From positions 105,473 through 169,472 of the forward strand of contig CAWEKC010000003.1 in NCBI GenBank assembly GCA_963809665.1: DNA of 64,000 nucleotides, read 5' to 3'. This DNA comes from Candidatus Gottesmanbacteria bacterium. GTDB lineage: Bacteria > Patescibacteriota > Microgenomatia > UBA10105 > UBA927. Each line of letters begins with the position of its first letter. The stretch's first letter is position 1. The position numbers and the translations under genes were made by a program. Below are positions 14,915 to 42,233 of this stretch, in pieces. The notes under the pieces are model-generated. The model was not told where the DNA came from, ran no database searches, and saw nothing but the letters and a program-made list of their open reading frames with translations.

Positions 14915-14918
14915 TTTT

Positions 14919-24327: not shown

Positions 24328-25274
24328 AAACCCACACACATCCCGAATATCAGTATCTCGATCTCATGGCCGACATTATGAAACATGGGCATTGGAAGGT
24401 GAGCCACTCAACAGGGGTAAAGCTTAAAAGCGTTTTCGGGCGCATCTGCAGATACGATTTATCCAAAGGTCTGCCGGTTCTTACAACGAAAAAAGTTTTT
24501 ACGAGGGGTATCATCCATGAACTTCTGTGGTTTTTATCGGGCGAGAGCAACATTAAATATTTACTGGATAACAACGTACATATCTGGGATGAATGGGCAT
24601 ACAAAAAATTTGAATGGGCGGTCCGCGATCACAAGGCACAACCCATGACGTTTGAGGCATTCATGGAAAAAGCAAAAACGGATCCGAAATTTTTGAAAAA
24701 ATGGGGAGAATTGGGGCCGGTGTACGGGGTGCAGTGGAGGAAGTGGCCGGTTAACCATACACGTACGGTAGACCAGCTCGGGTGGGCGATTGAAAAAATC
24801 AAAAAGTTTCCGATGAAGAAACACTATATAATCAGCGCCTGGAATGCCGGTTGCATCTACGAAATGTCAGGCTCTCATGCAGCCTCGATGGTGATCGCAC
24901 CGTGCCACACGATGTTCCACATTAATATTACCGGTGATAAATTATCGTTACTGTTGTATCAGCGCAGCGCCGATTTATTTTTAGGCGTGCCGTTTAATAT
25001 CGCTTCCTATGCGCTATTAACCATGATGCTTGCACAGGTAACGGGATATAAACCCGGTGAGTTCGTGCACGTATTCGGCGATGTGCATATTTATGAAAAC
25101 CACCTGAAACAGTGCCGGGAACAGTTGCAGCGGAAACCAAGAAAATTTCCGACAATTAAAATAAATCCGAAAGTTAAATCAATCGACGGATTTAAATTTG
25201 AGGATTTTGAATTGGTTGGCTATAATCCGCATCCTCCTATCAAGGGAGACATTACTGTAGTGGGTGGATTTTGA
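24324..25274 (+). CDS. thyA: Thymidylate synthase (316-aa form with L. casei-type insert)
   Basis: IHELLWFLSG, IWDEWA, catalytic IAPCHTMF, YQRSADLFLGVPFNIASYALL; about 35-aa insertion after IWDEWA. Confidence 0.9.
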   Translation: MKTHTHPEYQYLDLMADIMKHGHWKVSHSTGVKLKSVFGRICRYDLSKGLPVLTTKKVFTRGIIHELLWFLSGESNIKYLLDNNVHIWDEWAYKKFEWAVRDHKAQPMTFEAFMEKAKTDPKFLKKWGELGPVYGVQWRKWPVNHTRTVDQLGWAIEKIKKFPMKKHYIISAWNAGCIYEMSGSHAASMVIAPCHTMFHINITGDKLSLLLYQRSADLFLGVPFNIASYALLTMMLAQVTGYKPGEFVHVFGDVHIYENHLKQCREQLQRKPRKFPTIKINPKVKSIDGFKFEDFELVGYNPHPPIKGDITVVGGF

Positions 25275-25298
25275 AAAACAGAACGAAATTAGAATGTT

Positions 25299-25324
25299 AG
25301 TGTATTAACATGTTAATACACTAT
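25299..25324. promoter_or_regulatory. 26-bp perfect palindrome TAGTGTATTAACATGTTAATACACTA, putative operator 8 bp upstream of folA start
   Basis: Perfect dyad symmetry read directly; shares TATTAAC-AT-GTTAATA core with palindromes at 38361-38394. Confidence 0.6.
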
Positions 25325-25331
25325 CGGGGAT

Positions 25332-25811
25332 ATGTTATCCATAATTGCAGTTATCGGAAAGAATAGAGAAATCGGAAAAGATAACGGTCTTATCTGGCAT
25401 TTGTCGGGCGACCTTAAACGGTTTCGCACCATTACAAACGGACATCCGGTAGTCATGGGGCGTAAAACATTCCAATCTATCGGACGGCCGCTGCCGAACC
25501 GTTCAAATTTTGTCATAACCCGCGACCCGTTATTCAAGTCAGAAGGAATCATGGCAGTCTCATCACTTGAGGAAGCCATTGAAAAAGCGAAATCCGCACC
25601 GGGGTCGGAAGAAATATTCATTATCGGCGGGGGATCGGTATACGCGCAGGCAATTGATACAGCAGACCGGTTATATTTAACAATAGTCGACGCGGCGGCA
25701 CCCGATGCCGATGCTTTTTTCCCCGATTACCCGCAGTTCACAAACGTTATAGAGGAATCCGGGCACGAAGAACAGGGGATTAGCTACACCTACCGTACAC
25801 TTGAAAAGTAA
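25332..25811 (+). CDS. folA: Dihydrofolate reductase
   Basis: IIAVIGKNREIGKDNGLIWHLSGDLKRFRTIT...VMGRKTFQSIG classic DHFR N-terminus, GGG motif. Confidence 0.9.
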   Translation: MLSIIAVIGKNREIGKDNGLIWHLSGDLKRFRTITNGHPVVMGRKTFQSIGRPLPNRSNFVITRDPLFKSEGIMAVSSLEEAIEKAKSAPGSEEIFIIGGGSVYAQAIDTADRLYLTIVDAAAPDADAFFPDYPQFTNVIEESGHEEQGISYTYRTLEK

Positions 25812-25836
25812 ATGCAGAGTGCTATAGTTTAAGTAT

Positions 25837-26946
25837 ATGAAACTGAAAACGGTCTTTTTTCTTCTCGTATTCACACTTTTCGGTTTTGCTACGGCTGCTC
25901 CCGTCCATGCATTTGAGATTATGGAGGGGGACCAGAGGAATGGTATTACTGTTGCCAAAGATACGGTCGTGAAAGGGTCGCTGCTTGCTGCCGGTAATTC
26001 GGTGGTTATCGACGGAACGATACAAGGCGATCTATATTGCGCCGGGCAAACGATAATCGTGCGCGGCACGGTAACGGGTGATGTTCTGTGTGTCGGACAA
26101 ACGCTTGATATCAGCGGGTCTGTCGGCGGAAATATCCGTTCCATGGGTCAGCTCCTTACGATTGCGGGGCCCGTACAACGTAACGTCGTAATAGCAGGTC
26201 AAACGGTAAGCGTCGCACCGGAAGCGGCAATCACCGGGGAACTTCTTGCCGCAGGACAGACGGTTAATCTTAATAGTTCTATCGGCGGCGATGTGAATGC
26301 TGCAGCTGAATCTATCCTGTTGGGTGAAAAAGCCAAAATAGCCGGAAACTTTACGTATACAAGCCCGAATGCAGCTGAAGAAGCGACCGGTGCTGCGGTT
26401 ACCGGAAAAGTATCTCACATCATTTCAAAAAAACTGGAACCGAAGCCGTTAACCCCCAGAAGTTTGCTGCCTAAAGCTCAGCCGTGGCCGGTGAATGCGA
26501 TAGGATCGATAGTTTTTTACCTCATTATCGGGGCGATAGTTGTACTTTTAGCAAAAGAGAAAGTATTGAGAACCGTTTCCCAGATGCTTGCGCGTCCCTG
26601 GTTTGACGGATTTGTGGGCTTTTTGACAATAATTGCCGCTCCCATAATCATCGTGATGGTTGCCATTACAATTATCGGGATACCGGTGGCCCTTATTCTC
26701 GGCGTTATATTTGCGGTGATGATTGTGCTATCGCGGATCTATGTTTCCGTAATTATCGGGGAGAAACTATTGTCCGCGACCGGCAGAACGAAATCCGGAT
26801 TGCTGTTGCAGATGATCATAGGTGTCATCATTATCGAATTATTGGTTAAAATTCCGGTTTTAGGATTTTTCGTATCCGCCGCCGCCGTACTTTGGGGATT
26901 AGGCGGTATCGTCATGAATTTCGGGAAACGGAAAGCGGCAAAATAA
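25837..26946 (+). CDS. Bactofilin-like beta-helical repeat protein with signal peptide and C-terminal multi-TM region
   Basis: N-terminal signal-like helix; repeated G-x-(V/I/L)-x-G-(D/N)-(V/I) units (residues about 50-200); four hydrophobic helices in C-terminal 150 aa. Confidence 0.45.
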   Translation: MKLKTVFFLLVFTLFGFATAAPVHAFEIMEGDQRNGITVAKDTVVKGSLLAAGNSVVIDGTIQGDLYCAGQTIIVRGTVTGDVLCVGQTLDISGSVGGNIRSMGQLLTIAGPVQRNVVIAGQTVSVAPEAAITGELLAAGQTVNLNSSIGGDVNAAAESILLGEKAKIAGNFTYTSPNAAEEATGAAVTGKVSHIISKKLEPKPLTPRSLLPKAQPWPVNAIGSIVFYLIIGAIVVLLAKEKVLRTVSQMLARPWFDGFVGFLTIIAAPIIIVMVAITIIGIPVALILGVIFAVMIVLSRIYVSVIIGEKLLSATGRTKSGLLLQMIIGVIIIELLVKIPVLGFFVSAAAVLWGLGGIVMNFGKRKAAK

Positions 26947-26949
26947 CGG

Positions 26950-27222
26950 TTACGTAATGTCCCGTTTCATTTCTAAAAATTCCCGCTTGGTGATTTCACC
27001 TTTTGCGTAGCGCTTTTTAAGTATTTGAAGAGCCGTTTCTTCACCTTGTAAATCCTTCCCGTTGTCGCTCATGTCGTCACTTTCCGACCGGTGAGCGGCA
27101 ATTGCCCAAATGAGAAGTATAACTCCGATAATGATAAGGATCGGAAACAACCCGAACTCGAAAAAACCTCCGTTTCCGATTGGATACATATGGCCGTAAT
27201 ATCCCCACATCATGATCTTCAC
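26950..27222 (-). CDS. SHOCT-domain small membrane protein
   Basis: N-terminal TM helix, C-terminal RYAKGEITKREFLEMKRDI matches SHOCT. Confidence 0.55.
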   Translation of the reverse strand: MKIMMWGYYGHMYPIGNGGFFEFGLFPILIIIGVILLIWAIAAHRSESDDMSDNGKDLQGEETALQILKKRYAKGEITKREFLEMKRDIT

Positions 27223-27315
27223 CTACTTTCTATACAAAATATACCCTAACATTCTGAGAAAACGCTGAAAACTTTTTTCATATGTACATTTGTGGGATAA
27301 TATGTCAACAATTTT

Positions 27316-27969
27316 ATGAATTCGAAAGAAACGGTACGGGATGCATATTCGTTTTTGACCCTGCAGGCTTCATCTCGATTGCACAGGAAGACACCCGAAT
27401 CGTACGCGGAACATAAGCAGGCATTACCCGCCATAATCCTAATTCCTGGGTTTTTCGAACACTGGGGAATGTTGCGGAAAATTTCGGATACGCTTTCAGA
27501 CAGAGGATATGATATTTTTACCGTCCCGAAATTAGGGGAAAACCTATCCGATATAAAAACTACGGCTGATAAAATAGAGGAAACAACTCAGCGGAATCAT
27601 CTTCTTTGGAAGGTGTATCTCGGTCACAGCTATGGGGGTATTATGGCCTATTATATGGCGCGTTTCCACGAATCATCAAGGGCGATTGCCATTGCGGCAC
27701 CTTTTTTGGGATCGGATTTAGCGGAACATGCCCGTTTAATCCGGATTGCCCGCACAATGGCTCCACATAGCCCGGTCTTACAGGAACTGATAGACTATAT
27801 TGGGGATACAAATTCACGCGTCGTTTCGATCTATCCCAAGTCGGATAATATTATCCCGAACGGTAGTTATCTTGATGGTGCTGAAAATATAGAGATCAAT
27901 ACGGTTGGGCATCATAATATATTACGACACGTGGATGTCCGTCGGGACGGATTATTCGGTCAAACTTGA
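27316..27969 (+). CDS. Alpha/beta-fold hydrolase (esterase/lipase-like)
   Basis: Nucleophile elbow GHSYGG (G-x-S-x-G), 217 aa. Confidence 0.55.
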   Translation: MNSKETVRDAYSFLTLQASSRLHRKTPESYAEHKQALPAIILIPGFFEHWGMLRKISDTLSDRGYDIFTVPKLGENLSDIKTTADKIEETTQRNHLLWKVYLGHSYGGIMAYYMARFHESSRAIAIAAPFLGSDLAEHARLIRIARTMAPHSPVLQELIDYIGDTNSRVVSIYPKSDNIIPNGSYLDGAENIEINTVGHHNILRHVDVRRDGLFGQT

Positions 27970-28006
27970 ATTTTGGGAAGCAGAAAGGCTACAAAGGCAG
28001 TAATAT

Positions 28007-29063
28007 ATGAATTTGAAAATCGGGATCGTCGGACTGGCAAACGTGGGGCAAGTCAACGCTGTTCAATGCGCTGCTGAAAAAACAGCTTGCGTTTGCTGCA
28101 AATTATCCGTTTGCGACGATTGAACCGAATATCGGCGTCGTACCGGTTCCGGACGACCGGCTCGCGCGTCTTGCGGATATTGTTGAAAAAGAAGAGGGAA
28201 CGAGACCTCCCCTGCGGCCTGCGACCGTTGAGTTTGTGGATATCGCGGGACTGGTGAAGGGGGCATCGGAAGGACAGGGACTCGGCAATAAATTCCTTTC
28301 GCATATCCGTGAGGTACATATTATTTGCCACCTCGTCCGTCTTTTCCCGAACCCCGACATCGTTCATGTGATGGGAGATATTGATCCGGCCCGTGACCGG
28401 GAAATCGTGGAAACCGAACTGATGCTGGCCGACATGCAAACGCTTACCAAACAGACGGAACCGAATCAAACGGCTTCAAAAGAGGAGAGGGCGCGGTGGA
28501 ATGTTATTGCAAAACTAAAAGACGGTCTTAATGTAGGTAAGCTTGCCAGACTGGTCGTTACCGATGCTGAGGAACGTTTATTGGTTCGTGACCTTCAACT
28601 CTTAACGATGAAACCGATGCTGTATGTCGCAAACGTATCGGAAAATCAATTAAAAGAGAAAAACGATATGCTCGCCATATGCGCTGAAACGGAATCACAA
28701 CTGGCAGGGTTGACCGGAACAGAACAGAAAGAATATCTGCAGTCTTTGGGGCTTGAAGCGTCCGGTCTTGACCGGCTTATTCAGAAAGCCTACGAAATGC
28801 TCGGGCTCATTTCCTTCCTTACCTGCGGGGGTATCGAGGCGCGTGCCTGGACGATAGAAAACGGGACAAAAGCGCCGCAGGCGGCGGGAGTTATCCACAC
28901 GGATTTTGAGAAAAAGTTTATTAAAGCAGATTGCATATCGTTTAAGGAGTTTGTAGCGGTGGGGGGCTGGAAAAAAGCCAGAGAGCTTGGCAAAGTGCGG
29001 GTTGAGGGCAAAGAATATGTCATGCAGGATGGAGATGTGGTTGAGTTTAAGGTCGGAACATGA
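28007..29063 (+). CDS. ychF: Ribosome-binding ATPase YchF, interrupted by extra G in GGGG run at 28045-28048
   Basis: ATG at 28007 gives MNLKIGIVGLANVG; removing one G restores GKSTLFNALL...ANYPFATIEPN...VEFVDIAGLVKGASEGQGLGNKFL; TGS domain at C-terminus. Confidence 0.8.
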
Positions 29064-29356
29064 TAATATTAGCCTCTATGCAGAGAGTATATGAGCTTAT
29101 GTTGGTGCTCCGGCCGGATTTTGGCGTGGAGGAAAAAACGGCCCGCGATTTAGTTGAAAAGCTTATCGGAGATAAGAAGATTAAAGAACTGACGGTTATG
29201 GGGAAAAAACGGCTTGCGTATCCCATCAAAAAGCAGTCTGAAGGGGTGTATGTTGTAGCGATTATTACCGGGAGTCCTATGAATATAGGGGCTTTTGAAA
29301 AACAGATAAAATTAGGCACGGACGTATTACGGTTCCTGCTCACGGTAAAGGAGTAA
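29060..29356 (+). CDS. rpsF: 30S ribosomal protein S6
   Basis: YELMLVLRPD...EEKTARDLVEKL pattern of bS6; likely true start ATG 29078. Confidence 0.75.
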   Translation: MIILASMQRVYELMLVLRPDFGVEEKTARDLVEKLIGDKKIKELTVMGKKRLAYPIKKQSEGVYVVAIITGSPMNIGAFEKQIKLGTDVLRFLLTVKE

Positions 29357-29360
29357 GACT

Positions 29361-29888
29361 ATGTCGTCACGAAGTTTAAACAAAGTTCAGCTGATCGGTA
29401 ATCTCACCCGCGACCCCGAGTTACGGTATACGCCAACAGGGGCCGCGGTTTGTACAATAGGATTGGCAACCAACAGGTCGTGGACAACGGAAGCAGGCGA
29501 AAAGAAGGAAGAGACGGAGTTTCATAGAGTGGTTGCATGGAATAAGCTTGCGGAACTTTGCAGCCAGCTTTTGGTCAAAGGAAGAAAGATTTACGTTGAA
29601 GGGAGACTCCGGACGAACACCTGGCAAACGACTGACGGTCAGCCCAGGAGTACAACGGAAATCGTTATTGAGGATATGATTATTTTGGATTCGCGTCGGC
29701 CCGGTGTGACGCCCGGAACGAGTGAAGAGGGAGCAGGAAGCGGAGAAACACCTGCTGCCAATACGTCACAACCGGGGCCAAGTGCAACGACGTATGCGCA
29801 ACCCGCGGTGAAAAAAAACGTCAAAAAGACCGAAGAAAAAACAGAAAGCGCGTCAGAAGAAGTAAATCCTGATGACATTCCGTTTTAA
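29361..29888 (+). CDS. ssb: Single-stranded DNA-binding protein
   Basis: OB-fold N-terminus (LNKVQLIGNLTRDPELRYTPTGAAV...FHRVVAWNKLAE), Gly/Pro/Thr linker, acidic tail ending DDIPF. Confidence 0.9.
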   Translation: MSSRSLNKVQLIGNLTRDPELRYTPTGAAVCTIGLATNRSWTTEAGEKKEETEFHRVVAWNKLAELCSQLLVKGRKIYVEGRLRTNTWQTTDGQPRSTTEIVIEDMIILDSRRPGVTPGTSEEGAGSGETPAANTSQPGPSATTYAQPAVKKNVKKTEEKTESASEEVNPDDIPF

Positions 29889-29897
29889 TGACACACC

Positions 29898-30140
29898 ATG
29901 ATGAAACGAAGATTTGATAAGAGACGTGAACGACCGGTGGCCAAAAACTGTCCGTTCTGCGCCAATAAAACGGAACCGGATTATAAAGATACCGGTGTTT
30001 TAAATAAATATATTACCGAACGCGGAAAATTATTGAGCCGCGCCCGGACGGGTTTATGTGCGCGCCATCAGCGGGGGATTACCGCTGCCGTCAAACGTGC
30101 GAGGCTCGTTGCCCTTCTTCCGTTTATCGTCCGTGCATAA
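29898..30140 (+). CDS. rpsR: 30S ribosomal protein S18
   Basis: CPFC...[42 protein letters not shown] typical bS18. Confidence 0.85.
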
Positions 30141-30221
30141 ATTCAGCAATATCTCAGGATTTTTTTCTATACTTTCTCCATTTACTGGTATTCGATTTCC
30201 TGATAGTATGGAAGACGTCCT

Positions 30222-31499
30222 ATGAAATCGTTTCGTTTCACGAATATCCGGCTTTTCGTCATCATTGCAGCCCTCTGTATCCTCACTGGGGGTATTGGAT
30301 ATAACCTGGGTGAGCGGAAAACTTCCATTAGTTTGAGCCCGGATAAACGGATCATAGTTAATCAAAGTCCACCGGCCGGCATAACGGTGGATTTTTTCCT
30401 GTTTTGGGACGTATGGCAACGGTTAAACAGATCATACATTGACCGCGCAAGTATCGATCCGCAGAAAATGGTGCAGGGCGCAATTGCCGGAATGGTGAAC
30501 TCATTGGGTGACCCGTATACGACGTATCTGACCGCGCAGGATAATACGGATTTCAAACAGAATTTGGGGGGTGCCTTTGAAGGAATCGGGGCACAGTTGG
30601 GGATGAAAGACAACCGTGTAATGGTTATAGCTCCACTGAAGGGTACACCGGCGGAAGCGGCGGGAATTGTAGCTGGTGATTTTATAATGAAAGTGGACGC
30701 GGCGGATACGACCGGCTGGACTGTAAACGAAACGGTTAATAAAATCAGGGGTCCGAAAGGGACGGCTGTTAAACTTTCTATTCTTCATCCGAACGGTACA
30801 GCACCTGTTGATATTTCTATTGTGCGCAACACTATTAACGTCCCCTCCGTGGTTTCGTGGATAAAACCCGTTAACCAAATTACGGAAATTGCAGGTGTGG
30901 ACGCTACCAAAACATTACCGCAAAACGGGAATATCGCGTACATCCAGTTGTCACAATTCGGGGATAATACAAACGCAGAATGGGATAAGACTGTTACAGA
31001 TGTGATTACCTCAGGAAGTTCGGTCAAAGGATTAGTTTTGGATTTACGAAATAACCCGGGGGGATATCTGGAAGGCGCGGTTTATATTGCAAGCGAATTT
31101 ATTAAAAGCGGTACGGTCGTGTCTCAGGTAAATAGCGACGGGACGAAGCAGGATTATCCCGTGGACCGGCAGGGAAGACTTCTGACGATCCCGATGGTTG
31201 TACTTATAAATAAAGGAACCGCTTCAGCCGCGGAAATTGTTTCCGGAGCACTGCGGGATTACAAACGGGCAACGCTGGTCGGGGAAACGTCGTTCGGGAA
31301 AGGGTCGGTTCAGACACCGGAAGATTTACAAGATGGTTCAAGCGTCCACATTACAACAGGCAAATGGTTGTTGCCCAACGGGGATTCGATAAGTAAAAAA
31401 GGCATTATCCCGGATATTGTTATCACGTCGGATACAACAACCACTACCGCGACTGCCGACGCTCAGCTGGAAAAAGCTGCGGAATTATTATTAAAATAA
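30222..31499 (+). CDS. ctpA: Carboxyl-terminal processing protease (S41 family) with PDZ domain
   Basis: N-terminal TM anchor, PDZ segment, LDLRNNPGGYLEGAV and catalytic Ser/Lys region (GTASAAEIVSGAL). Confidence 0.8.
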   Translation: MKSFRFTNIRLFVIIAALCILTGGIGYNLGERKTSISLSPDKRIIVNQSPPAGITVDFFLFWDVWQRLNRSYIDRASIDPQKMVQGAIAGMVNSLGDPYTTYLTAQDNTDFKQNLGGAFEGIGAQLGMKDNRVMVIAPLKGTPAEAAGIVAGDFIMKVDAADTTGWTVNETVNKIRGPKGTAVKLSILHPNGTAPVDISIVRNTINVPSVVSWIKPVNQITEIAGVDATKTLPQNGNIAYIQLSQFGDNTNAEWDKTVTDVITSGSSVKGLVLDLRNNPGGYLEGAVYIASEFIKSGTVVSQVNSDGTKQDYPVDRQGRLLTIPMVVLINKGTASAAEIVSGALRDYKRATLVGETSFGKGSVQTPEDLQDGSSVHITTGKWLLPNGDSISKKGIIPDIVITSDTTTTTATADAQLEKAAELLLK

Positions 31500-31517
31500 T
31501 CATTTCAACTTCCGGAG

Positions 31518-32375
31518 GTGATGTATATGAAGAAACTTCCCATCATCTTACTTACAGTATTCTTTGGGCTTGTTATAGTTAACGCATTCATATCGTTTGA
31601 TGGAAAAATACCTCAAACAGAGAAGACAACAACTCCCCAGGGTTCAGTACGGGTCGTATCGGAGGAATCAGTCATTATTGATGCCGTGAAGAAAGCCTCT
31701 CCTGCTGTTGTAACAGTATCCGTTACCCAAACACAACCGTCGGGGGTCGAGTATCAAATAGACCCGTTTAATCCGTTTGCGCCGATTATTCCTTTACCAC
31801 GCGGTAGCAACCAAAACACCCAACAGAATATCGGAAGCGGTTTTATCGTTGACAAAAACGGCCTTATTATCACAAATAAACACGTGGTTTCCGATACGAC
31901 TGCGACCTACAGTATCATCACGAACGATAATAAAACGTATGCGGTTACTCAGATTTACCGGGATCCGAGTAATGACCTGGCAGTGTTAAAAATTAATCCA
32001 CCGGCCGGCGGTCTCCCGACCGTTCAGTTAGGGGATTCCAATTCCATTCAGGTAGGACAACTTGCCATTGCAATCGGTACAGCGCTCGGACAATTCCGTT
32101 CGACCGTGACAACCGGTGTGGTATCAGGGGTGGGCCGCGGTATTACTGCCGGCGACCCGTTTGCGGGAGCCGCCGAACAGTTGGATAACGTCATTCAAAC
32201 ATCAGCGGCTATCAATCCCGGTAATTCCGGCGGGCCGCTATTGAACAGCGCAGCCCAAGTTGTCGGCATTAATGTCGCCGTATCAGCACAGGGTCAAAAT
32301 ATCGGGTTTGCGCTTCCCATCAATGTCGTGAAAAGGGCACTGATTAATTTCGAAAAGACAGGTCAATTGCAGTAA
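31518..32375 (+). CDS. Trypsin-like serine protease (HtrA/DegP-like, no PDZ)
   Basis: Catalytic triad context GSGFIV...NKHVV, NDLAVLKI, NPGNSGGPLLN; N-terminal TM anchor. Confidence 0.75.
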   Translation: MMYMKKLPIILLTVFFGLVIVNAFISFDGKIPQTEKTTTPQGSVRVVSEESVIIDAVKKASPAVVTVSVTQTQPSGVEYQIDPFNPFAPIIPLPRGSNQNTQQNIGSGFIVDKNGLIITNKHVVSDTTATYSIITNDNKTYAVTQIYRDPSNDLAVLKINPPAGGLPTVQLGDSNSIQVGQLAIAIGTALGQFRSTVTTGVVSGVGRGITAGDPFAGAAEQLDNVIQTSAAINPGNSGGPLLNSAAQVVGINVAVSAQGQNIGFALPINVVKRALINFEKTGQLQ

Positions 32376-32377
32376 TA

Positions 32378-33085
32378 TTATAACCCTATAGATGCGGTGA
32401 CGGGATAATGATCGGAGAACCGTGTCCGCTCGAGTGAAAGAGAAGAAAGCGTGCATCGTTTTACAAACACATAATCCAGTTGATATCTCCATAGTGCCAT
32501 CCTATATGTTGACAACCGCGTCGCGGTGGTTTGAAACCCGATTTTTTTCATACGTCGGATTAGTGTATCTTTTGCACGAATTCTCGGGATATTAAAATCA
32601 CCGGTTATAATAAGCCCGTGGTTGTGCGTAGCCAAATGATCGGTAATGAGACGGAGCTGTTTATAGCGTGACCGGTTAGCGGCAAGAAACACTAAATGGG
32701 TGTTTGCGACGGTAATAGTTTTACGGCCGACGCGGAATGTCGTCAGAAGACAACTTTTTTCCATCGGATTTTTCAACAATGATTTTTCCATTGGGTGGAC
32801 TCCCATAAGAAGCGTTTTTGAATGCATCAAACGTAGTTTTTTTTTCCGGAATAATGTTACAATTCCGAATATTTTTTTTCTGAAGATAAATGAATCTGTG
32901 AACCGATGTCCCCAGTCACGGGAGAGTGACCGGTAAAATGTCGTAAGATATACAACGGGAAATTCCTGGAGACAAATAATATCTGCGTCGGTCTGGTTTT
33001 CGATCCAGGAAATAATATCAATGAGTCGTTTTCCGAAATGAATGTTGTATGTAACAACGCGTAACATTTTAGACGTGTGAGGCAA
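32378..33085 (-). CDS. Endonuclease/exonuclease/phosphatase (EEP) family protein
   Basis: VVTYNIHFG N-terminus, DIICLQEF, C-terminal SDHYPV motif. Confidence 0.7.
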   Translation of the reverse strand: MPHTSKMLRVVTYNIHFGKRLIDIISWIENQTDADIICLQEFPVVYLTTFYRSLSRDWGHRFTDSFIFRKKIFGIVTLFRKKKLRLMHSKTLLMGVHPMEKSLLKNPMEKSCLLTTFRVGRKTITVANTHLVFLAANRSRYKQLRLITDHLATHNHGLIITGDFNIPRIRAKDTLIRRMKKIGFQTTATRLSTYRMALWRYQLDYVFVKRCTLSSLSLERTRFSDHYPVTASIGL

Positions 33086-33776
33086 GGAGAGCTTCAGTAA
33101 TTTTTCCCATTTTCCCTTCGATAATGTCGTCCAGATTATGCCAGGATTTTCCGATACGGTGGTCGGTCACACGGTTTTGCGGAAAGTTGTACGTCCGGAT
33201 TTTTTCCGCACGCATACCGCGGCCGATGATGCTTCGTGCAGCTCCTAACGCCGCGGCGGCTTTCGTTTCTTCAAGTTCCCATAATTTTGCCCTCAGCATT
33301 GAGAGGGCTACCTGGCGGTTTTGATATTGATCCCGTTCAGTCTGGCAGGTGACGACAATACCGGTTAGTTTATGCCGTATGCGCACTGCCGAACTTACTT
33401 TATTTACATTCTGCCCGCCTTTGCCGCCGCTCCGGTAAAATTCCAACTCAATATCTTCCGGGCGGATGATAACGTCAGTTTCAGGAATTTCTGGAAGTAC
33501 TGCGACGGTTGCCGTGGATGTATGAATCCGTCCGGCGCGTTCGGTCGAGGGCACACGCTGTACGCGGTGGGTTCCCGCTTCATACTGTAATTTCGTGAAT
33601 ACCTGCAGCCCGCGTAGCCGGATAGCCATATCCGAGATAGCCTGTGTTTTCCAGCCCGATATACCAGCGTACCGAAGATACATTCGCATAAGATCGGCTG
33701 CCCATATACGGGCTTCTTCGCCGCCCGGCCCGGGCCTGAATTCCATAATTGCGACATCCGGGTTCACAGAATTCAT
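33069..33776 (-). CDS. prfA: Peptide chain release factor 1 lacking N-terminal domain 1
   Basis: RVQRVPSTE (PxT tripeptide context of RF1), GGQ motif (SGGKGGQNVNK), RTYNFPQNRVTDHR; only 235 aa; upstream gene rpmE abuts at 33786 leaving no room for domain 1. Confidence 0.75.
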   Translation of the reverse strand: MNSVNPDVAIMEFRPGPGGEEARIWAADLMRMYLRYAGISGWKTQAISDMAIRLRGLQVFTKLQYEAGTHRVQRVPSTERAGRIHTSTATVAVLPEIPETDVIIRPEDIELEFYRSGGKGGQNVNKVSSAVRIRHKLTGIVVTCQTERDQYQNRQVALSMLRAKLWELEETKAAAALGAARSIIGRGMRAEKIRTYNFPQNRVTDHRIGKSWHNLDDIIEGKMGKITEALLASHV

Positions 33777-33785
33777 ACGGAAGAT

Positions 33786-34094
33786 CTACTTTAAGCCCAT
33801 TAACATGTCTTTGAGGGATTTCGGATTGCGGAGTGACTCGGCACGTTCCAGTTTCTTTTTCTTCCGTGCGGCCAGTACCGTTGATTGGGCAGCAGCTGTT
33901 TTTACTTTTTTCTGGAATCGTTCGACGCGGCCCATCGTATCAACAAATTTCATTTCCCCGGTAAAAAATGGATGGCATTTGCCGCAGATTTCCACGCGAA
34001 GCTCCGGCTTGGTGGCGCCTACCGTAAACCGGTTACCGCAGGCGCACGTAACGACCGCGTCCGGATACCATGTTGGGTGAATCGATTTTTTCAT
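33786..34094 (-). CDS. rpmE: 50S ribosomal protein L31 with C-terminal basic extension
   Basis: [23 protein letters not shown]...[10 protein letters not shown] zinc-ribbon bL31. Confidence 0.85.
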
Positions 34095-34119
34095 ACGAGA
34101 GAAGTATTATATCATTTCA

Positions 34120-35153
34120 TCAGTTCTTTTGAAAGATTGAAGCGAGGACTTCCTTTTTTTTGAGCTTGGTATGGGGCGGAATAGCAGATTGAGGAATAAT
34201 GGGAACCGCGGCTTTTTCGACGGATTTTCCAAGCAACATCAACTTTCTGATCGGGTGATAATGGATGCGGCCTTCAGCTAAGAATATGCCGCCGAAGATG
34301 AGGATTGCCCCGCCCAAAAAGGGAGAGTGATTGGTTCGTGTAAAATCAGTGCGCCCGCCACCGTACCTACGAGAGGATCAACATATGCAAACATTGCGGT
34401 ATCGGTGGCAGAGATTTTGGACAGACCCCAGGCAAATAAGCCATACGCGATGGTACTGCTGAAAATCGCCCCATACGCGATACCTACATAGCCGCGCCAA
34501 TCTAAGAGGGCATACAGATGAGGTATACGTACATATTCATAGAAAGCTAATGGGAGAAAGCTTGCCGCTCCGACCAAAAACGCCCAAAACGTGAATGCCC
34601 ACGGATTATATTTATTGACAATCCTTTTGCCGACAATGGTTTGGCCGACAGCGGCGAGTGTTGCGATCAGGAGATAGAGATTTCCAAGGACCGATCCGTC
34701 TACACCGCGAAGCAATAATGGTTCGATGATGATGAGAAGAATGCCCAATGTCCCCAATACCATTCCAAAGAATTTTTTCAGTTTAAATCCTTCGTGAAGA
34801 AAGAGTATCGCAAAAAAAAGTATGAGAATCGGTTGCGCGCTTGCGATAACAGGGGAATTAATAGACAAAGTGAGTTTCAGTCCCCAGAAGAAAAAAATAA
34901 TATTAAGCGTAATGCCTAAAAAACCATAGAGAAACAGAAGTATCGCATCTTTCCTGCTGGTGAGTGGAAGTGCAACCTTTTTGCGGATTATGATAAGTAT
35001 CATAATGGCACCCAGGAAAAAGCGCCAGAAGGCGAGTGTAAACGGAGGGATATTCTCTAAGCTTAACTTAAATATTGCCGCGGCCGCGCCCCAGATGATG
35101 TTGGCAATGATAAGTGCCAAAAAAGCTTTTTGGACAGTCGTGAGCGATTTCAT
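34120..35153 (-). CDS. EamA/DMT-family transporter, interrupted by homopolymer indel near 34308-34320
   Basis: Ten hydrophobic helices with two EamA repeats; last helix (GGAILIFGGIFLAEG) encoded in -1 frame after CCTTTTTGGGCGGGG run. Confidence 0.65.
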
Positions 35154-35156
35154 GAA

Positions 35157-36371
35157 TTAATTTGCCCGGAGTTTTTCAATCAGTTTCTCAACAGAAAATT
35201 CTTCCTGTTTTTTCGTTCCCATATTTTTCAGTTTCACAACGTTCCGTTTTACTTCATCAGGTCCCGCAATTACGACATACGGAATTCCCTTTTTATCGGC
35301 ATATTTCAGTTGTTTGTCAAGTTTTGCCGACGTATCGACGTAGACTTCCGCATTAAGTCCGGCCCGGCGTAAGGAACTCGTGAGTTCAAGCGATGATCCT
35401 AACTGCTCCGGCGAAAAAATTGTGACCAATAGTTGTGTAGCAGTTGGTTGAACCGGCAACAAGTTAAATTCACCCAACGCCTCTACTATGCGGTCAAAAC
35501 CGAACGCAATGCCTACCGCAGGGACATCCTGGCCGGAAAATTGACCGATCAGTCCGTCGAACCGCCCTCCGCCGGCGAGCGATCCGCTTGTATACGCACC
35601 GGCTTTCAATTCAAATATCGTGCTTGTGTAGTATTCCAGTCCCCGGGCTAAAAACCGGTTGAACCGGAAATCCACATCCTCTTTGTATCCCAGACGCTTG
35701 AGCGCTTCGAAAATTTTCCAGATCCGTTCGGTCGGCTTGGAATTTTTCAGTGAAGCAATAAGATCTTTTGCATTTTTCCTCCCGTCGGCTTCCAATTCCC
35801 GAATGACTTCCTCGACCCCGATTTTATAGAGTTTATCGATGATGGTAATTTCCTTTTTGGTAAGCTTAAGGTCGTCGAATATCGTCCGGTCGTTGACATC
35901 CATGATAATGCCTGAGAACCCGAGTTGTTTAAACGTATTAAGGGAGCAATCAATAATTTCCGCGTCGGCAAGGGGAGAATCCGACCCGATTGTATCAATG
36001 TCGCACTGCATAAATTCGCGGAACCTGCCTTTCTGCGTATTTTCCGCGCGCCACACAGGCTGGATTTGATAGCGCTTGAACGGTTTGGGAAGTTCCGGAT
36101 ATTGGGCAACAACGCGCGAGAGGGGAACGGTCTGGTCATAGCGAAGGCCCACGTTCCGTTTTCCGTTATCGCGAAATAGATATAATAATTTATCCGCCTC
36201 GCCGCCGTATTTTCCCATGAGCGTTTCAGCGTATTCCAACGCAGGTGTTTCTAACGGGTCAAATCCGTACCGTTCAAATACTGCCCTGATTTTCCCCACG
36301 ACAATTTGTCGCGCGAGGGCGGCTGAAGGCAAAAAATCCCGAAATCCTTTCAATGTTTGTGCTTTGATCAT
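35157..36371 (-). CDS. hisS: Histidine--tRNA ligase
   Basis: KGFRDFLP, class II motifs (FRYDQTVP-like RYDQTVPLSR, GGRFDGL), C-terminal anticodon-binding domain. Confidence 0.9.
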   Translation of the reverse strand: MIKAQTLKGFRDFLPSAALARQIVVGKIRAVFERYGFDPLETPALEYAETLMGKYGGEADKLLYLFRDNGKRNVGLRYDQTVPLSRVVAQYPELPKPFKRYQIQPVWRAENTQKGRFREFMQCDIDTIGSDSPLADAEIIDCSLNTFKQLGFSGIIMDVNDRTIFDDLKLTKKEITIIDKLYKIGVEEVIRELEADGRKNAKDLIASLKNSKPTERIWKIFEALKRLGYKEDVDFRFNRFLARGLEYYTSTIFELKAGAYTSGSLAGGGRFDGLIGQFSGQDVPAVGIAFGFDRIVEALGEFNLLPVQPTATQLLVTIFSPEQLGSSLELTSSLRRAGLNAEVYVDTSAKLDKQLKYADKKGIPYVVIAGPDEVKRNVVKLKNMGTKKQEEFSVEKLIEKLRAN

Positions 36372-36372
36372 A

Positions 36373-36576
36373 TTAATTTCCTTTTAATACTACCAATGCT
36401 TTTTCTTTATCTTTTTTTTGTACGGATAACCGTATTCCTTCCGTCATGGACGGGTACATACCGCCGGCATCGTCCCCCTCGATAAAAGCCGCAATCCCGC
36501 TTCCCTCAAGAACACTTTTGGCAACTTCCGCTTCCAGTCTTCTCGTATATGTCGCGATGACAACCACCTCCGGCAT
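36373..36576 (-). CDS. DUF2007-like small protein
   Basis: 67 aa, pattern VVVIATYTRRLEAEVAKSVLEGSGIAAFIEGDD typical of DUF2007. Confidence 0.45.
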   Translation of the reverse strand: MPEVVVIATYTRRLEAEVAKSVLEGSGIAAFIEGDDAGGMYPSMTEGIRLSVQKKDKEKALVVLKGN

Positions 36577-36637
36577 GTATTAAGCGTACCAAATCCCAGG
36601 CGCGAATACCAGCGTGATATTGTACCGAGATTCTATA

Positions 36638-37645
36638 CTATTCGGGTGTCCAATAGGCTGCCATATTAAGTAATCTCTGCTCTTTATTTTTGATGGTTTT
36701 TCTTACTGTTAACCCTGGTTCATCTAATCCGGGTGAACTGACACGGATTGGTAGGTCAACCAAATCTTCAGGACGAATAAGAATAAAGTTTTGTTCTTCC
36801 ATATTTTCATATATTTTGTCGGCCATATTCCAACAGGCACAGCTAAAACTCCACCAATCAACGCTGCTTATGCTTGCCCACTTCGCCATTTGTTCTTTGC
36901 TTGCGTCAGGTGCAATATACGGGAACGCTCTGGAAAGCTTGCCGGATGTAAGCGGTTCGTTAATCACTCTTCCAGATAAGGGTACAAAGGGGATAAAATC
37001 CCTTGCCTCAATCCAATCAACTGGCGTGCCGATATTTGTTTTTGTAATTGTAAGAATTCCATTAGACCGCAACGTACGAATCGATTCGTCAGTAGCGATA
37101 CCGAGCACAGCGGTATTGACTTTGATGTTCTCTTTAGCTAACTTTTGTGCTAGATCAACCAAAGAGCCTCCGGAATATGCGCCAACATCTATAACGCAAA
37201 TATCGCGTTTATCACCCAGTAGATAGTTAAGCTGTTGAATCTGCGTAATAATATCTGGATACCCAGGACGCGCAATTTCTGCAATGGAAAAATCCGCATT
37301 AAGTCCACGGGTGATATTCAGACATGCATCGGCTTCGTCTGCACCGTAAATCGGATCTAGTGACACAATGGGATAGCCAAGTTGTTTAACTCGAGCTACG
37401 TCCGTTTGGATATTTTTCTGAATTATTTCAGCATTCAGTACAGTAAGCGGAACCGGTCGAATAGTCTTTTCTAATTCTTCCGTTAAATCCGTTTGTACTT
37501 TGCGATATACATCAGCGGACGGCGGTTTCCAGCCCTTATACCTACACAGTGCGTTCATAAGTACCGGAACATCCCATGACAACACATATGACGGTGTCGG
37601 TTCGAGTTCTTTTGGACGAAATTCAATTTTTTCACTATTTACCAT
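36638..37645 (-). CDS. Hypothetical protein with PRTase-like PRPP-binding loop (ICVIDVGAYSGGS)
   Basis: 335 aa; hhhhD-x-G-x-x-S-G-G-S resembles type I phosphoribosyltransferase loop; 6-bp gap to upstream LOG-like gene suggests operon. Confidence 0.35.
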   Translation of the reverse strand: MVNSEKIEFRPKELEPTPSYVLSWDVPVLMNALCRYKGWKPPSADVYRKVQTDLTEELEKTIRPVPLTVLNAEIIQKNIQTDVARVKQLGYPIVSLDPIYGADEADACLNITRGLNADFSIAEIARPGYPDIITQIQQLNYLLGDKRDICVIDVGAYSGGSLVDLAQKLAKENIKVNTAVLGIATDESIRTLRSNGILTITKTNIGTPVDWIEARDFIPFVPLSGRVINEPLTSGKLSRAFPYIAPDASKEQMAKWASISSVDWWSFSCACWNMADKIYENMEEQNFILIRPEDLVDLPIRVSSPGLDEPGLTVRKTIKNKEQRLLNMAAYWTPE

Positions 37646-37651
37646 ATATTT

Positions 37652-38191
37652 TCACCTTCTTTCTAAAGGCTGTATTAAAGTTAAGGCCATATGTACTGCT
37701 TCTTTGGGAGTACGCGCCGCTTTTACCTTGATTCTTTTTCTACCATCTAAATATTGTCCCGCGAGTTTTTCACTCCATCCACCAGTGCCGATAAGTACGA
37801 CCACGGGAATGTTTGCCTGATAGGCAATTGCAATTTCCGTGAGCGTTCCCGATCCGCCGCTTATGCAAATAATTGCGTCGCAGCTTAACACTAGAGCGAG
37901 CTCGCGCCCCCCGCCACGTTCGAGGCCAGACGCAATCACGACATCGACGTTTTTTTCGACAATTTTTAACCCTTTCCCGTACGTGACGCCCACAGTAAGA
38001 CCGCCTGCATTTTTTGCACCTCGACCTGCTGCTGTAGAAAGCGAGTCAAAGTCTTTTTCAGCACCGAAAAGAAGCGTTGCGTTGTTTTTTGCAACCCAAT
38101 AGCCGACTTCTTCCGCAAGCCGTTCAATAGTTTTCGTGTATTTCAGATCCGAGCAGGATCCCATAACACCGATTTGAAATTTTCTTTTCAT
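37652..38191 (-). CDS. LOG/TIGR00725-family (SLOG) Rossmann-fold protein
   Basis: IGVMGSCSD...AAGRGAKNAGGLTVGVT and ISGGSGTLTE (PGGxGTxxE-like) motifs; 179 aa. Confidence 0.6.
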   Translation of the reverse strand: MKRKFQIGVMGSCSDLKYTKTIERLAEEVGYWVAKNNATLLFGAEKDFDSLSTAAGRGAKNAGGLTVGVTYGKGLKIVEKNVDVVIASGLERGGGRELALVLSCDAIICISGGSGTLTEIAIAYQANIPVVVLIGTGGWSEKLAGQYLDGRKRIKVKAARTPKEAVHMALTLIQPLERR

Positions 38192-38197
38192 ATATAC

Positions 38198-38226
38198 ATT
38201 CGCAGAACAATAAAACCTGCGAATGG
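38198..38226. promoter_or_regulatory. Perfect 9-bp stem hairpin (CATTCGCAG-N11-CTGCGAATG) 7 nt upstream of LOG-like start codon
   Basis: Inverted repeat read directly; lies in the 5' leader of the minus-strand operon. Confidence 0.35.
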
Positions 38227-38360
38227 GAGAGGGGAGAGGATTTAGTTAAAATTAGAAATTAAAAATTGATGAAGGTCTCGCCTCGACCACGCGTAGGTTT
38301 AAATCAGGCGATGATGAAGCCCGCAAGAAGAAGAAAACGATGATAAACAAAAGTATTTCA

Positions 38361-38394
38361 TATTAACGCGTTAATATATTAACATGTTAATATA
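38361..38394. promoter_or_regulatory. Two overlapping perfect palindromes TATTAACGCGTTAATA and TATATTAACATGTTAATATA (half-site TATTAAC)
   Basis: Dyad symmetry verified base by base; in promoter region of LOG-like operon and 14 bp beyond the stop codon of the TrpR-like gene. Confidence 0.6.
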
Positions 38395-38407
38395 ACTATG
38401 TCAAGGA

Positions 38408-38785
38408 TTACATTTGGAAGGGGTTTTTCATACCGCGGAGCTTGCCGCTTTTGAACCGGGGATGTGTGTGATAATCCTGGGTTGCCCGATCGTCAAATAT
38501 GCGGGAGGCGATCGTTGCATATCCGCCCCGACCTTTTTTCAGCCAGCGGGCGACACGGGTGACGGTCGCTGTAGACACATTAAGTTTCTTGGCGATATCT
38601 GCGTATGATTCGTGGCGAATGAGCAATTTAACCATCTGCCATCGGTTCGCAAATTCGGTAAGTTCAGGTAACGTAAGAAGATCGCGGAAAAAATTGACTG
38701 CTTCTTCTTTCGATTTTATTTCCCGTACTGCGTCGAACAATTCATTCATTTCCGGGGTAGGATACATGAGTGTCTGTCTTTTCAT
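38408..38785 (-). CDS. TrpR-like/YerC-YecD family DNA-binding protein
   Basis: LLTLPELTEFANRWQMVKLL...IAKKLNVSTATVTRVARWLKKG matches Trp-repressor-like HTH family. Confidence 0.6.
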   Translation of the reverse strand: MKRQTLMYPTPEMNELFDAVREIKSKEEAVNFFRDLLTLPELTEFANRWQMVKLLIRHESYADIAKKLNVSTATVTRVARWLKKGRGGYATIASRIFDDRATQDYHTHPRFKSGKLRGMKNPFQM

Positions 38786-38815
38786 ATTAATACGTTAATA
38801 TATTAATGAAGAAAT
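38786..38815. promoter_or_regulatory. Imperfect copy of TATTAAC-N-TTAATA inverted repeat in promoter of TrpR-like gene
   Basis: ATATTAATACGTTAATATATTAAT immediately upstream of the regulator start codon. Confidence 0.4.
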
Positions 38816-38820
38816 TGCAA

Positions 38821-39555
38821 TTACGGTGTGGGGGTGGGTTTGGGTGTTACTTTCAGAGTAGCAGACGGGGATGCTATTTTTGTGGGAGTCGGTGTCGGAG
38901 TAGCCCCGGTACGGTTGCCGATGTCGAGTATCCGTATGGCACTCAGGCGATTTTCCACGTTGGCTTCCGGCGTTTCCAATACATGAACGGTATCTCCCAC
39001 GATTAACTGGGAAAATCCGGCTTTTAGAACTCCCTTGTCTTTTGTCCAGTGAAAATTTTTCGTTGTTGTTTCAAAATCGACAATATATGATTGTCCTTCC
39101 TGCGTTGCCACGGTTATCGTGTAGTTTATTTTGCTGACGGCTGTGATCGTGCCGGATATACGCTCCGGAATGCTTCCCTGGATAAAAATGACCTGCGCTT
39201 TTAGGATATCGAGGTTCGTGTCGTAATCGCCGAACACGACCACATCGTCGCCTTTTGTCACTTGATCGGTCGTGAGTTCAGTTCGTTTGCCTTTCAGTAT
39301 TTGAAAGACGGAAATGCTGTCCGTCAGTTCAATTTTTATATCGCTTGTTTTTGTACTCACGGTTATTGTTGAAACGGATGTCGTTTTTACCGTACCGTAT
39401 ATCGCGCGCTTCTGTGACTGTTTCAGTTGCGTAGCCGCCGATGCCAACCGGTCCTTGAGCGTATCTAATTTTTGCTGTGCGTCGGGTGTTGCCGTTTGGG
39501 CATACACGGATGATGCCACAAAAAACGCACTGATGATAAGTATGATTTTTTTCAT
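38821..39555 (-). CDS. Secreted protein with TP-repeat linker
   Basis: Signal peptide MKKIILIISAFFVASSVYA; C-terminal TPTPTPTKIASPSATLKVTPKPTPTP. Confidence 0.45.
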   Translation of the reverse strand: MKKIILIISAFFVASSVYAQTATPDAQQKLDTLKDRLASAATQLKQSQKRAIYGTVKTTSVSTITVSTKTSDIKIELTDSISVFQILKGKRTELTTDQVTKGDDVVVFGDYDTNLDILKAQVIFIQGSIPERISGTITAVSKINYTITVATQEGQSYIVDFETTTKNFHWTKDKGVLKAGFSQLIVGDTVHVLETPEANVENRLSAIRILDIGNRTGATPTPTPTKIASPSATLKVTPKPTPTP

Positions 39556-42145: not shown

Positions 42146-42231
42146 GCCTGGGTGGCGGAATTGGTAGACGCGCAGCTCTCAAAAAGCTGTGAAGCTAACA
42201 CTTCATGAGAGTTCGAGTCTCTCCCTAGGCA
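42146..42231 (+). tRNA. tRNA-Leu (anticodon CAA)
   Basis: 7-bp acceptor GCCTGGG/CCTAGGC, D-arm GCG-GAATTGGTAGA-CGC, anticodon stem CAGCT/AGCTG with loop CTCAAAA, long variable arm, T-arm GAGAG-TTCGAGT-CTCTC. Confidence 0.85.
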
Positions 42232-42233
42232 CT

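Follow-up and report, generated by a model that had tools for sequence, protein, structure and literature searches.

Comparative genomics of 395 Firmicutes and 97 other genomes has predicted HisR, a histidine repressor of the YerC type within the TrpR family, for Firmicutes, Actinobacteria, Synergistetes and Proteobacteria (Ashniev et al. 2022, PMC9413887). It recognises 20-bp palindromes, of a consensus that varies with the lineage, in front of his operons, histidine transporter genes and its own gene; in R. gnavus, where it was validated, DNA binding depends on histidine (PMC9413887). The same study, which names the S. aureus yerC ortholog HisR and treats the structure 3G1C as a HisR, reports that these proteins do not conserve the residues with which TrpR contacts its ligand (PMC9413887). 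Here, we describe a relative of HisR encoded in a 64-kb stretch of DNA (the window) from a contig (CAWEKC010000003.1) of the Candidatus Gottesmanbacteria, which belong to the Patescibacteria or candidate phyla radiation (CPR); the names carried by homologs of its proteins agree with this, pointing to Patescibacteria and including Gottesmanbacteria among the relatives. The published survey makes no mention of Patescibacteria, hisS or folA (PMC9413887), and we found no later paper covering them; hence, this regulator adds a new lineage to a known family and differs from the described members in motif and regulon. We consider it probable that the locus is a HisR-type histidine regulon of a CPR bacterium, coupled to a new attenuator with a His-codon leader.

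The 125-aa product of the window's hisR gene is recovered by the Pfam model Trp_repressor (PF01371; 3.3e-21, 75.6 bits against a cutoff of 27) and by TIGR02531 (64.4 bits; cutoff 42.2), which bears out the placement of the regulator in the TrpR/YerC family by an earlier note on this DNA. Its nearest solved relatives are 3FRW (1e-16), 3G1C (3e-16) and 3KOR (5e-13), and neither E. coli TrpR nor any other TrpR chain in the PDB matched it at E<=1. TrpR proper was considered and rejected: the protein scores 31.5 bits with the TrpR model TIGR01321, under the cutoff of 67, and no trp or aro genes were found next to the sites described below, either in the window or in the related loci. These comparisons place it closer to HisR than to TrpR, and the best interpretation is that it represents HisR in the CPR. 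It shares with the described HisR proteins the Pfam and TIGRFAM families and a close helix-turn-helix (HTH) motif, STATVTRV here as against STATISRV in 3G1C, and is distinguished from them by a 25-aa C-terminal extension (125 versus about 100 aa) (PMC9413887). With E. coli TrpR, which is not its nearest relative by sequence, it has in common the fold family, a predicted co-repressor logic and autoregulation, and operators lying over the -10 and +1 positions.

Four sites in the window conform to the 20-bp consensus yATATTAAC-N2-GTTAATATr: O1 and O2 in tandem behind hisR, O_R in front of it and a fourth in the spacer between thyA and folA (Table 1). A search with TATTAACNNGTTAATA at up to two mismatches returns four matches in the window, against 0.29 +/- 0.56 expected, a count that none of 100 shuffles reached. 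A 20-bp weight matrix trained on 44 distinct sites of related loci, with no window site included, gives O1 31.5, O2 31.3, O_R 29.5 and the folA site 28.3 bits; its next matches, at 15.7 and 15.1 bits, are windows overlapping these same four sites, and the best unrelated position (CATATCAACATGTTTAAATA, 50773-50792, inside an ORF at 50431-50973 on the minus strand) reaches 12.7 bits and is probably a product of chance. Pattern count and matrix both give only the four sites, in agreement with the earlier statement that the 64 kb hold no further full copy. That such palindromes might be a generic intergenic repeat, or mere chance in AT-rich spacers, is suggested by the AT-rich composition of the motif, which is built from TTAA. 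The counts refute this reading, to which we assign virtually no credence: 629 kb of unrelated folA loci used as a control contain a single chance match at up to two mismatches, and the positions of the sites relative to hisR and the -35 box are conserved. The four palindromic sites are a real feature of this DNA.

The cores of O1 and O2 are overlapping palindromes across 38361-38394 that end 13 bp past the hisR stop codon, just where tandem perfect palindromes had been reported behind the regulator gene. Their abutment places half-sites every 8 bp, and the 8-bp-offset window scores 15.7 bits with the relatives-only matrix; dimers of E. coli TrpR bind in tandem at 8-bp offsets. The predicted operon promoter, found by a consensus scan, begins 4 bp past the hisR stop codon, and the placement of O2 over its spacer and -10 box and of O1 over the start region is the standard layout of a repressed promoter. 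The autoregulatory site proposed in the earlier note is likewise present as O_R, albeit over a shorter span than the claimed 38786-38815, and 13 of 32 relatives also have a site just upstream of hisR, 15-23 nt before its start. The putative hisR promoter, read directly from the sequence and not returned by the consensus scan, has a geometry that recurs in L070, L075 and L087, and by its spacing the hisR mRNA is apparently leaderless, with the -10 box at the centre of O_R. Two genes precede hisR (38821-39998, minus strand), coding for a 244-aa protein without a family and a 148-aa protein with a weak Glucodextran_B match; they are found in this position in nearly all relatives that reach far enough upstream and often overlap the hisR start. 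Read-through from these genes may be a further source of hisR transcription.

Evidence for what this regulator controls comes from related loci, which were fetched with regulators 38-85% identical to that of the window and whose genes were labelled by BLAST against a small reference set. They share a conserved block in which one strand carries DnaB and a metallo-beta-lactamase-fold gene and the genes for the 148-aa and 244-aa proteins, hisR, the sites, a variable cassette, hisS, eamA, L31 (rpmE) and prfA follow one another on the other. In the 30 distinct loci with enough sequence downstream of hisR, at least one site lies within 300 nt after hisR in 22 and at least two in 21. The spacing between these tandem 16-bp sites behind hisR and a conserved TTGACA box is fixed, the box standing at an equal distance from the operators in most relatives, and the positions of the sites relative to hisR and the -35 box are kept down to about 50% protein identity. 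This placement around hisR supports the earlier proposal that the palindromes are likely the regulator's operators. One departure among the close relatives is L079, where about 520 bp (230-750) are inserted between hisR and the TTGACA/operator/leader region; in the other relatives with HisR at least 75% identical, the operators start within about 25 bp of the hisR stop.

The variable cassette behind these sites is a complete histidine biosynthesis operon (hisGDCB..IE) in L004, L073 and L096, as well as in the more distant L100, L101 and L104; elsewhere, it is a lone aromatic/histidine ammonia-lyase gene (hutH) or an M24 peptidase gene, or, in the window, L098, L102/L103 and L113, a gene of the SLOG cluster4 family (SLOG4) with a homolog of the 335-aa protein X335 described below. 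Tandem sites precede the hisG operons of L004, L073 and L096, hisS in L072 and L088, and operons ending in hisS-eamA. A tRNA-His(GTG) gene is found within the cassette in L004 (10757-10829) and L073 (5047-5119), in both cases after the leader and before hisG, and in L097 (1845-1916) between hisR and hisS. The hutH-type gene (PF00221), which adjoins hisR in L001 (10581-12110), L004 (8400-9926), L068, L071, L077, L078 and L088, usually comes directly behind the operators and the His-codon leader. As a separate observation, L004 has, a few kb before the hisR block (1564-3466), a radical SAM gene and a methyltransferase gene of PF10017, a family of EgtD-like methyltransferases specific for histidine.

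Because the same operators precede his operons, hutH, tRNA-His and hisS in the relatives, we conclude that the regulon is about histidine and not about folate or purines. A rival reading, along the lines of the earlier note, is a TrpR/YerC-like repressor with a folate- or purine-related effector and a core regulon of folA, the LOG/phosphoribosyltransferase (PRTase)-like gene pair and the regulator. The four sites do share one motif, the longest perfect palindrome is the one before folA, the nearest solved relatives of SLOG4 include a pterin (molybdenum cofactor, Moco) carrier protein, and X335 has the purine/pyrimidine PRTase fold. Against this, the contexts of the relatives' operators listed above point elsewhere, a His-codon leader follows those operators, the validated ligand of the family is histidine (PMC9413887), and the folA site is absent in four relatives, among them one whose FolA has 91% identity; the contig of one of the four also bears hisR operators. 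We therefore think that a folate/purine effector is improbable.

A further pointer to histidine, overlooked in the earlier note along with the switch RNA described below, is found between O1 and the SLOG4 start, where a 20-codon leader ORF carries two His codons three sense codons before its stop. Whichever gene comes next, the relatives carry equivalent ORFs in which HH or HHH is succeeded by 2-4 further codons and a stop. At least two consecutive His codons are present in 26 of 28 distinct related elements, and in 25 of these 26 an in-frame stop lies 2-4 codons later and the ORF is initiated by ATG; the other two frames have a stop within 5 codons in 4/26 and 1/26. Where the elements vary in length beyond the His codons, they do so by multiples of 3. 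The ORF lies in a 170-nt leader whose RNA, conserved among the relatives beyond the ORF, has four segments, E1 to E4. RNAalifold predicts a 16-bp long-range helix between E2 and E3, which on an alignment of 20 sequences is 96.6% paired versus 49-62% in slid controls, with 10 compensatory pairs and a score reached by 0 of 500 shuffles. The 9-bp E4 hairpin is 88.6% paired versus 39-58% in the controls, with five compensatory pairs, and as it shares nine alignment columns with the E2:E3 helix, the two are mutually exclusive. A single column-consistent E1:E2 helix was rejected, as the subtypes pair in different registers (UCGCCU:AGGCGA and AGCCGC:GCGGCU); checked per sequence instead, E1 paired with E2 in 11 of 13 sequences, that of the window among them (-7 to -14 kcal/mol), and two folded differently. 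These alternatives give the leader the 1:2/2:3/3:4 topology of a leader-peptide attenuator, in which the ORF is predicted to be translated.

A covariance model of this RNA, R1, has one strong match in the window (133 bits); its untrained matches lie solely downstream of hisR, and none occurs in the 629 kb of controls. Rfam gave no match at gathering score in the window and eight relatives, and none at E<=1 in 38150-38420; the hisL (RF00514) and T-box (RF00230) models in particular did not match the leader, and we found no literature on a leader peptide and histidine in Patescibacteria. The His-leader RNA is previously undescribed and, together with the histidine-linked SLOG/PRTase module discussed below, makes up the novel part of the system. 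With proteobacterial hisL (RF00514) and the candidate his attenuators of Firmicutes, it shares consecutive His codons in a short leader ORF, followed by alternative 1:2, 2:3 and 3:4 helices, and a place in front of histidine genes. E. coli hisL has seven His codons, whereas only two or three are present here, and the 3:4 hairpin mostly lacks a U-tract. The element also differs from hisL in sharing its promoter with a protein repressor and in preceding hisS, transporters and enzymes besides his genes.

An alternative is that the leader is a tRNA- or ligand-sensing riboswitch of T-box-like kind, with the small ORF incidental to it: CAU CAU could serve as a specifier, a GUGGU in E2 faintly resembles the T-box core, and the upstream wobble positions (GGNAUUUCUUCG) look conserved at the nucleotide level. 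We regard this as unlikely, given that neither a T-box nor any other Rfam family matches even at E<=1, that the frame is kept as described above, and that the His codons number two or three, as in leader peptides. A natural exchange argues the same way: in L088, whose HisR is 49% identical, a classical attenuator (5357-5560) takes the place of the E1-E4 RNA and the HH codons are kept. It has the textbook form CCGCCG/CCGGCGGG/CCCGCC/CCGGCGGG with a terminator hairpin and U7, in the same place; this locus has a second operator pair (7211-7245) directly upstream of hisS.

Table 1. Coordinates of the features discussed, as positions of the window
Feature	Position	Strand	Description
thyA	24324-25274	+	Thymidylate synthase, PF00303 4.5e-103; upstream of folA
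folA-spacer palindrome	25298-25323	.	26-bp perfect palindrome TAGTGTATTAACATGTTAATACACTA; HisR-type 20-mer TGTATTAACATGTTAATACA at 25301-25320
folA	25332-25811	+	Dihydrofolate reductase, PF00186 7.6e-51; possible lineage-specific HisR target
eamA	34278-35153	-	EamA-family transporter, PF00892 3.6e-44; last gene of the putative operon
hisS	35157-36371	-	Histidyl-tRNA synthetase; PF13393 1e-38 and anticodon-binding domain
67-aa ORF	36373-36576	-	Candidate gene packed between X335 and hisS; weak DUF2007-related match
X335	36638-37645	-	335-aa divergent type I PRTase-fold protein; no Pfam/NCBIfam family
SLOG4	37652-38191	-	SLOG cluster4/TIGR00725-like, LOG superfamily, 179 aa; first operon gene
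Structured leader RNA	38184-38328	-	Attenuator-like, E1-E4; leader 170 nt
E4 hairpin	38198-38224	-	Ends 6 nt before the SLOG4 ATG
E3	38216-38237	-	C/U-rich
E2	38276-38297	-	CCUACGCGUGGUCGAGGCGAGA
E1	38302-38314	-	Part of the His codons and ORF tail
Leader ORF	38299-38361	-	20 codons, MKYFCLSSFSSSCGLHHRLI ending LHHRLI; CAT CAT at 38311-38316
O1, predicted operator	38359-38378	.	Perfect core TATTAACGCGTTAATA 38361-38376; over the predicted transcription start; abuts O2
O2, predicted operator	38375-38394	.	Perfect core TATTAACATGTTAATA 38377-38392; overlaps spacer and -10 of the operon promoter
Operon promoter	38376-38404	-	TTGACA, 17 nt, TG-TAATAT; 10/12 consensus matches, extended -10
hisR	38408-38785	-	125-aa TrpR-family (YerC/YecD-type) repressor, predicted to be histidine-responsive
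O_R, predicted autoregulatory operator	38783-38802	.	Core TATTAATACGTTAATA 38785-38800, one mismatch; touches the hisR ATG
Putative hisR promoter	38792-38820	-	TTGCAA 38815-38820, 17 nt, TAACGT 38792-38797, 6 nt, ATG

Taken together, these features suggest a regulatory scheme with two layers. HisR dimers, with histidine as co-repressor, would bind the 20-bp palindromes, and occupancy of O2 and O1 would cover the -10 box and start region of the TTGACA-17-TAATAT promoter that is predicted to drive SLOG4, X335, the 67-aa ORF, hisS and eamA; binding at O_R, on the -10 box of hisR's own promoter, would result in autoregulation. In the second layer, E1 would pair with E2 or, alternatively, E2 with E3, the latter sharing bases with E4. 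When charged tRNA-His is scarce, a ribosome stalling at the His codons would mask E1 and favour the E2:E3 helix, which would open E4 and raise downstream expression. Both layers would thus act in the same predicted direction, raising the operon when histidine is scarce.

Several points weigh against this scheme. The motif, ATTAAC-N2-GTTAAT, differs from the Firmicutes HisR consensus, only the TTA-N6-TAA core being common, and histidine as the ligand of this regulator is something we infer from its family; it gains indirect backing from the His-codon leader and tRNA-His co-located with hisR loci. It is also odd for a histidine co-repressor that the nominally catabolic hutH stands under the same operators and leader. 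The hutH gene may have another role or work in reverse; neither hutU nor hutI was detected near the lone hutH, the reference set used for labelling the genes being one that lacks them. On the side of the RNA, E4 has no U-tract in most sequences, that of the window included, and a terminator scan around the window's leader was negative; the window also lacks a Shine-Dalgarno (SD) sequence before SLOG4, and the output step of the attenuator, be it termination or translation, is one that we infer. Several relatives have a GGAGG 3-6 nt after E4 that could pair with the C/U-rich E3, and the window lacks it. For the leader ORF itself, no SD is visible, and about 8 nt separate its start from the predicted start of transcription. 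Furthermore, the inventory of motifs and genes covers only the 64 kb of the genome in the window. Finally, the folA site is not conserved, and no promoter-like site lies between the thyA stop and folA.

Some of these differences have parallels in the published comparisons. A 20-bp palindrome with the TTA-N6-TAA core, sites before his operons, transporters and hisR, and frequent autoregulation are all shared with the described HisR regulons (PMC9413887). The motif here, CATATTAAC-N2-GTTAATATG, is nearer to the proteobacterial HisR/TrpR-type consensus than to cacTTTA-N6-TAAAgtg, and constitutes a lineage-specific variant of the kind reported for other phyla (PMC9413887). What sets this system apart from the published ones is that its sites are abutting tandems, that every target also has a His-codon leader, and that the regulon takes in hisS, EamA, hutH, tRNA-His and the SLOG4/PRTase-like pair, with folA in the window only (PMC9413887).

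The folA site calls for separate consideration. The 26-bp perfect palindrome that the earlier note had described 8 bp upstream of the folA ATG exists at that distance, its position being displaced by 1 bp from the one claimed. It lies in a thyA-folA spacer of 57 bp, a spacing reproduced in an independent assembly of run ERR12037368. In four relatives, whose FolA proteins are 91, 81, 79 and 66% identical, thyA and folA overlap by their stop and start codons (TAATG), and neither spacer nor site was found at thyA-folA within the sequence fetched; the contig of one of these loci (L105) also carries a hisR locus that has operators (L075). Because spacer and site are absent from these relatives, folA is at most a recent, lineage-specific recruit, and on this comparison it is not a core member of the regulon. 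In the related genomes, the sites are kept before the SLOG/PRTase-like pair and not before folA. The other folA loci returned by a contig search were distant (at most 62% identical and mostly from other phyla) and motif-free, and served as the negative controls. An origin of the spacer from a mobile element or duplication was rejected, blastn-short finding only the 16-17 bp operator core elsewhere in the sequences fetched. In L105, bAvd and a reverse transcriptase gene (RVT_1) about 4 kb downstream of folA (14684-16111) look like a diversity-generating retroelement.

The earlier suggestion that the palindrome would occlude the promoter and ribosome-binding site of folA does not hold up: a DNA-bound repressor cannot occlude a ribosome-binding site, and no convincing folA promoter is present. 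A sigma-70 promoter of folA's own was rejected, its sole match (TTGAGG-17-TATAAT) lying inside thyA and being no better than shuffles; the manual -10 candidates TAGAAT, TAACAT and TAATAC before folA have no -35 at 16-18 nt, and there is no terminator after thyA. The only plausible mode of action for HisR at this site, if it were occupied, would be a roadblock to read-through from thyA.

Alternatively, the regulon might extend no further than the hisR locus. The folA palindrome would in that case be a recently inserted element without meaningful HisR control, either neutral or active as RNA, where an AU-rich hairpin of 11 bp directly 5' of the folA start would influence the stability or processing of the mRNA. 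We hold this as a tentative alternative. The palindrome's lack of conservation and of a nearby promoter, noted above, is in line with it, as are its folding as RNA at -9.4 kcal/mol and its singular form: it is the sole site whose palindrome reaches 26 bp and the only one in the window with G at position 2 (TGTA), a base seen in about a fifth of the relatives' sites. On the other hand, it scores 28.3 bits against 12.7 for the best unrelated position in the 64 kb, a chance match of its 14 specified bases is expected, by a rough estimate, well under 0.01 times per Mb, and a repressor bound between co-transcribed genes can be a roadblock. Its TGTA..TACA flanks further agree with the 20-bp HisR/TrpR-type consensus; the edges of O1, O2 and O_R are CATA or TATA, and only the folA site fits the published proteobacterial half-site TGTAnTAr and its reverse complement (PMC9413887). 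On sequence grounds, we take the folA site to be a genuine sequence of the HisR type that far exceeds chance expectation and is of recent origin in this lineage.

The operon behind hisR, for which the labels of a LOG-like and a PRTase-like gene had been given correctly and whose strong promoter is indeed overlapped by the tandem palindromes, is longer than had been supposed and is predicted to extend through hisS and eamA. Its genes, SLOG4, X335, the 67-aa ORF, hisS and eamA, are tightly packed, with a gap of 3 bp between hisS and eamA, and the next gene, L31, has a promoter-like site of its own. No intrinsic terminators were found around the leader, and across the operon they are no more numerous than in shuffles. 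A search of the 64 kb for his or hut genes elsewhere found none, except for a generic aminotransferase (15051-15761). A tRNA-Leu(CAA) gene (42146-42232) adjoins dnaB, in a neighbourhood that is conserved in relatives.

SLOG4 matches PF18306 (5e-30, 104 bits) and retains GGSGTLTE, which fits GGxGTxxE, the LOG catalytic motif being PGGxGTxxE. It thus shares with the LOG/SLOG proteins (cytokinin riboside 5'-monophosphate phosphoribohydrolase, PpnN, TIGR00725) the SLOG cluster4 domain and this motif, and differs in falling under both cutoffs, with 86 bits for TIGR00725 (cutoff 107) and just 18 bits for PF03641 (LOG; cutoff 27); among solved structures, 1RCU and 2IZ5, a Moco carrier protein, come closest to it. 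We found no paper on TIGR00725, nor one describing a histidine-linked context of SLOG4, whether as HisR control or as an operon with HisG and HisE. X335 has the core fold of the PRTases, including the loop that binds phosphoribosyl pyrophosphate (PRPP), and is 9-15% identical to type I PRTases of the purine/pyrimidine kind. It differs from APRT, OPRT, XPRT and UPRT in its size (about 335 aa, including additional N- and C-terminal segments) and in lacking a Pfam match. A profile search at E<=1e-3 yields 995 cluster representatives of its family, the distant members of which reach PF00156 weakly and are in some cases fused to HAD or GNAT domains.

Genes of the X335 family are found behind the same operator and leader region in three arrangements: SLOG4-X335 in the window and L113, X-SLOG4 in L098, and an operon of a HAD phosphatase, a nucleoside hydrolase, X336 and an M24 peptidase, preceded by operator-like sequence and leader, in L111 (631-1016) and L066 (about 3039-3176). 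In the last of these, the HAD phosphatase and nucleoside hydrolase appear to stand in for SLOG4, and this replacement of a LOG-like hydrolase by a phosphatase and a nucleoside hydrolase suggests a pathway for cleavage of a ribotide at its N-glycosidic bond. In none of the related loci was the SLOG4/X335 module seen in one cassette with the his biosynthesis genes. Another link to histidine is seen in L062 (8440-10166), and also L063-L065, where an operon of SLOG4, HisE (PRA-PH) and HisG is divergent from X319-hisS. The SLOG4 of this operon has 73% identity with that of the window, and X319 only 28% with X335.

A broader interpretation, which we put forward with some reserve and which may well prove wrong, is that the control region is a slot into which histidine-supply cassettes are swapped (his biosynthesis, lone hutH, M24 peptidase, or the SLOG4 and PRTase-fold pair), that SLOG4/X335 would be an unrecognised histidine-linked ribotide pathway, and that the His-leader would be a new class of attenuator confined to the CPR. 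In one version, which is speculation, the pair would handle the purine side of histidine synthesis, that is, the disposal of 5-aminoimidazole-4-carboxamide ribonucleotide (AICAR/ZMP) together with the replenishment or salvage of adenine nucleotides. As the recycling of ZMP needs 10-formyl-tetrahydrofolate (THF), this version would rationalise the recruitment of folA.

The CPR bacteria are uncultured, have reduced genomes, and their gene regulation is barely known; this locus offers a directly testable regulon in the form of a protein, three operator fragments and a predicted ligand, along with an RNA switch supported by covariation. It would place two controls on one promoter—a protein proposed to sense free histidine and a leader proposed to sense charged tRNA-His. 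The folA site adds an apparently recent operator-type sequence, within a 57-bp insertion that is absent even from a relative with a FolA 91% identical. The histidine link, in turn, gives a physiological context and a functional lead for SLOG cluster4 and for a Pfam-less PRTase-fold family of about 1,000 cluster representatives.

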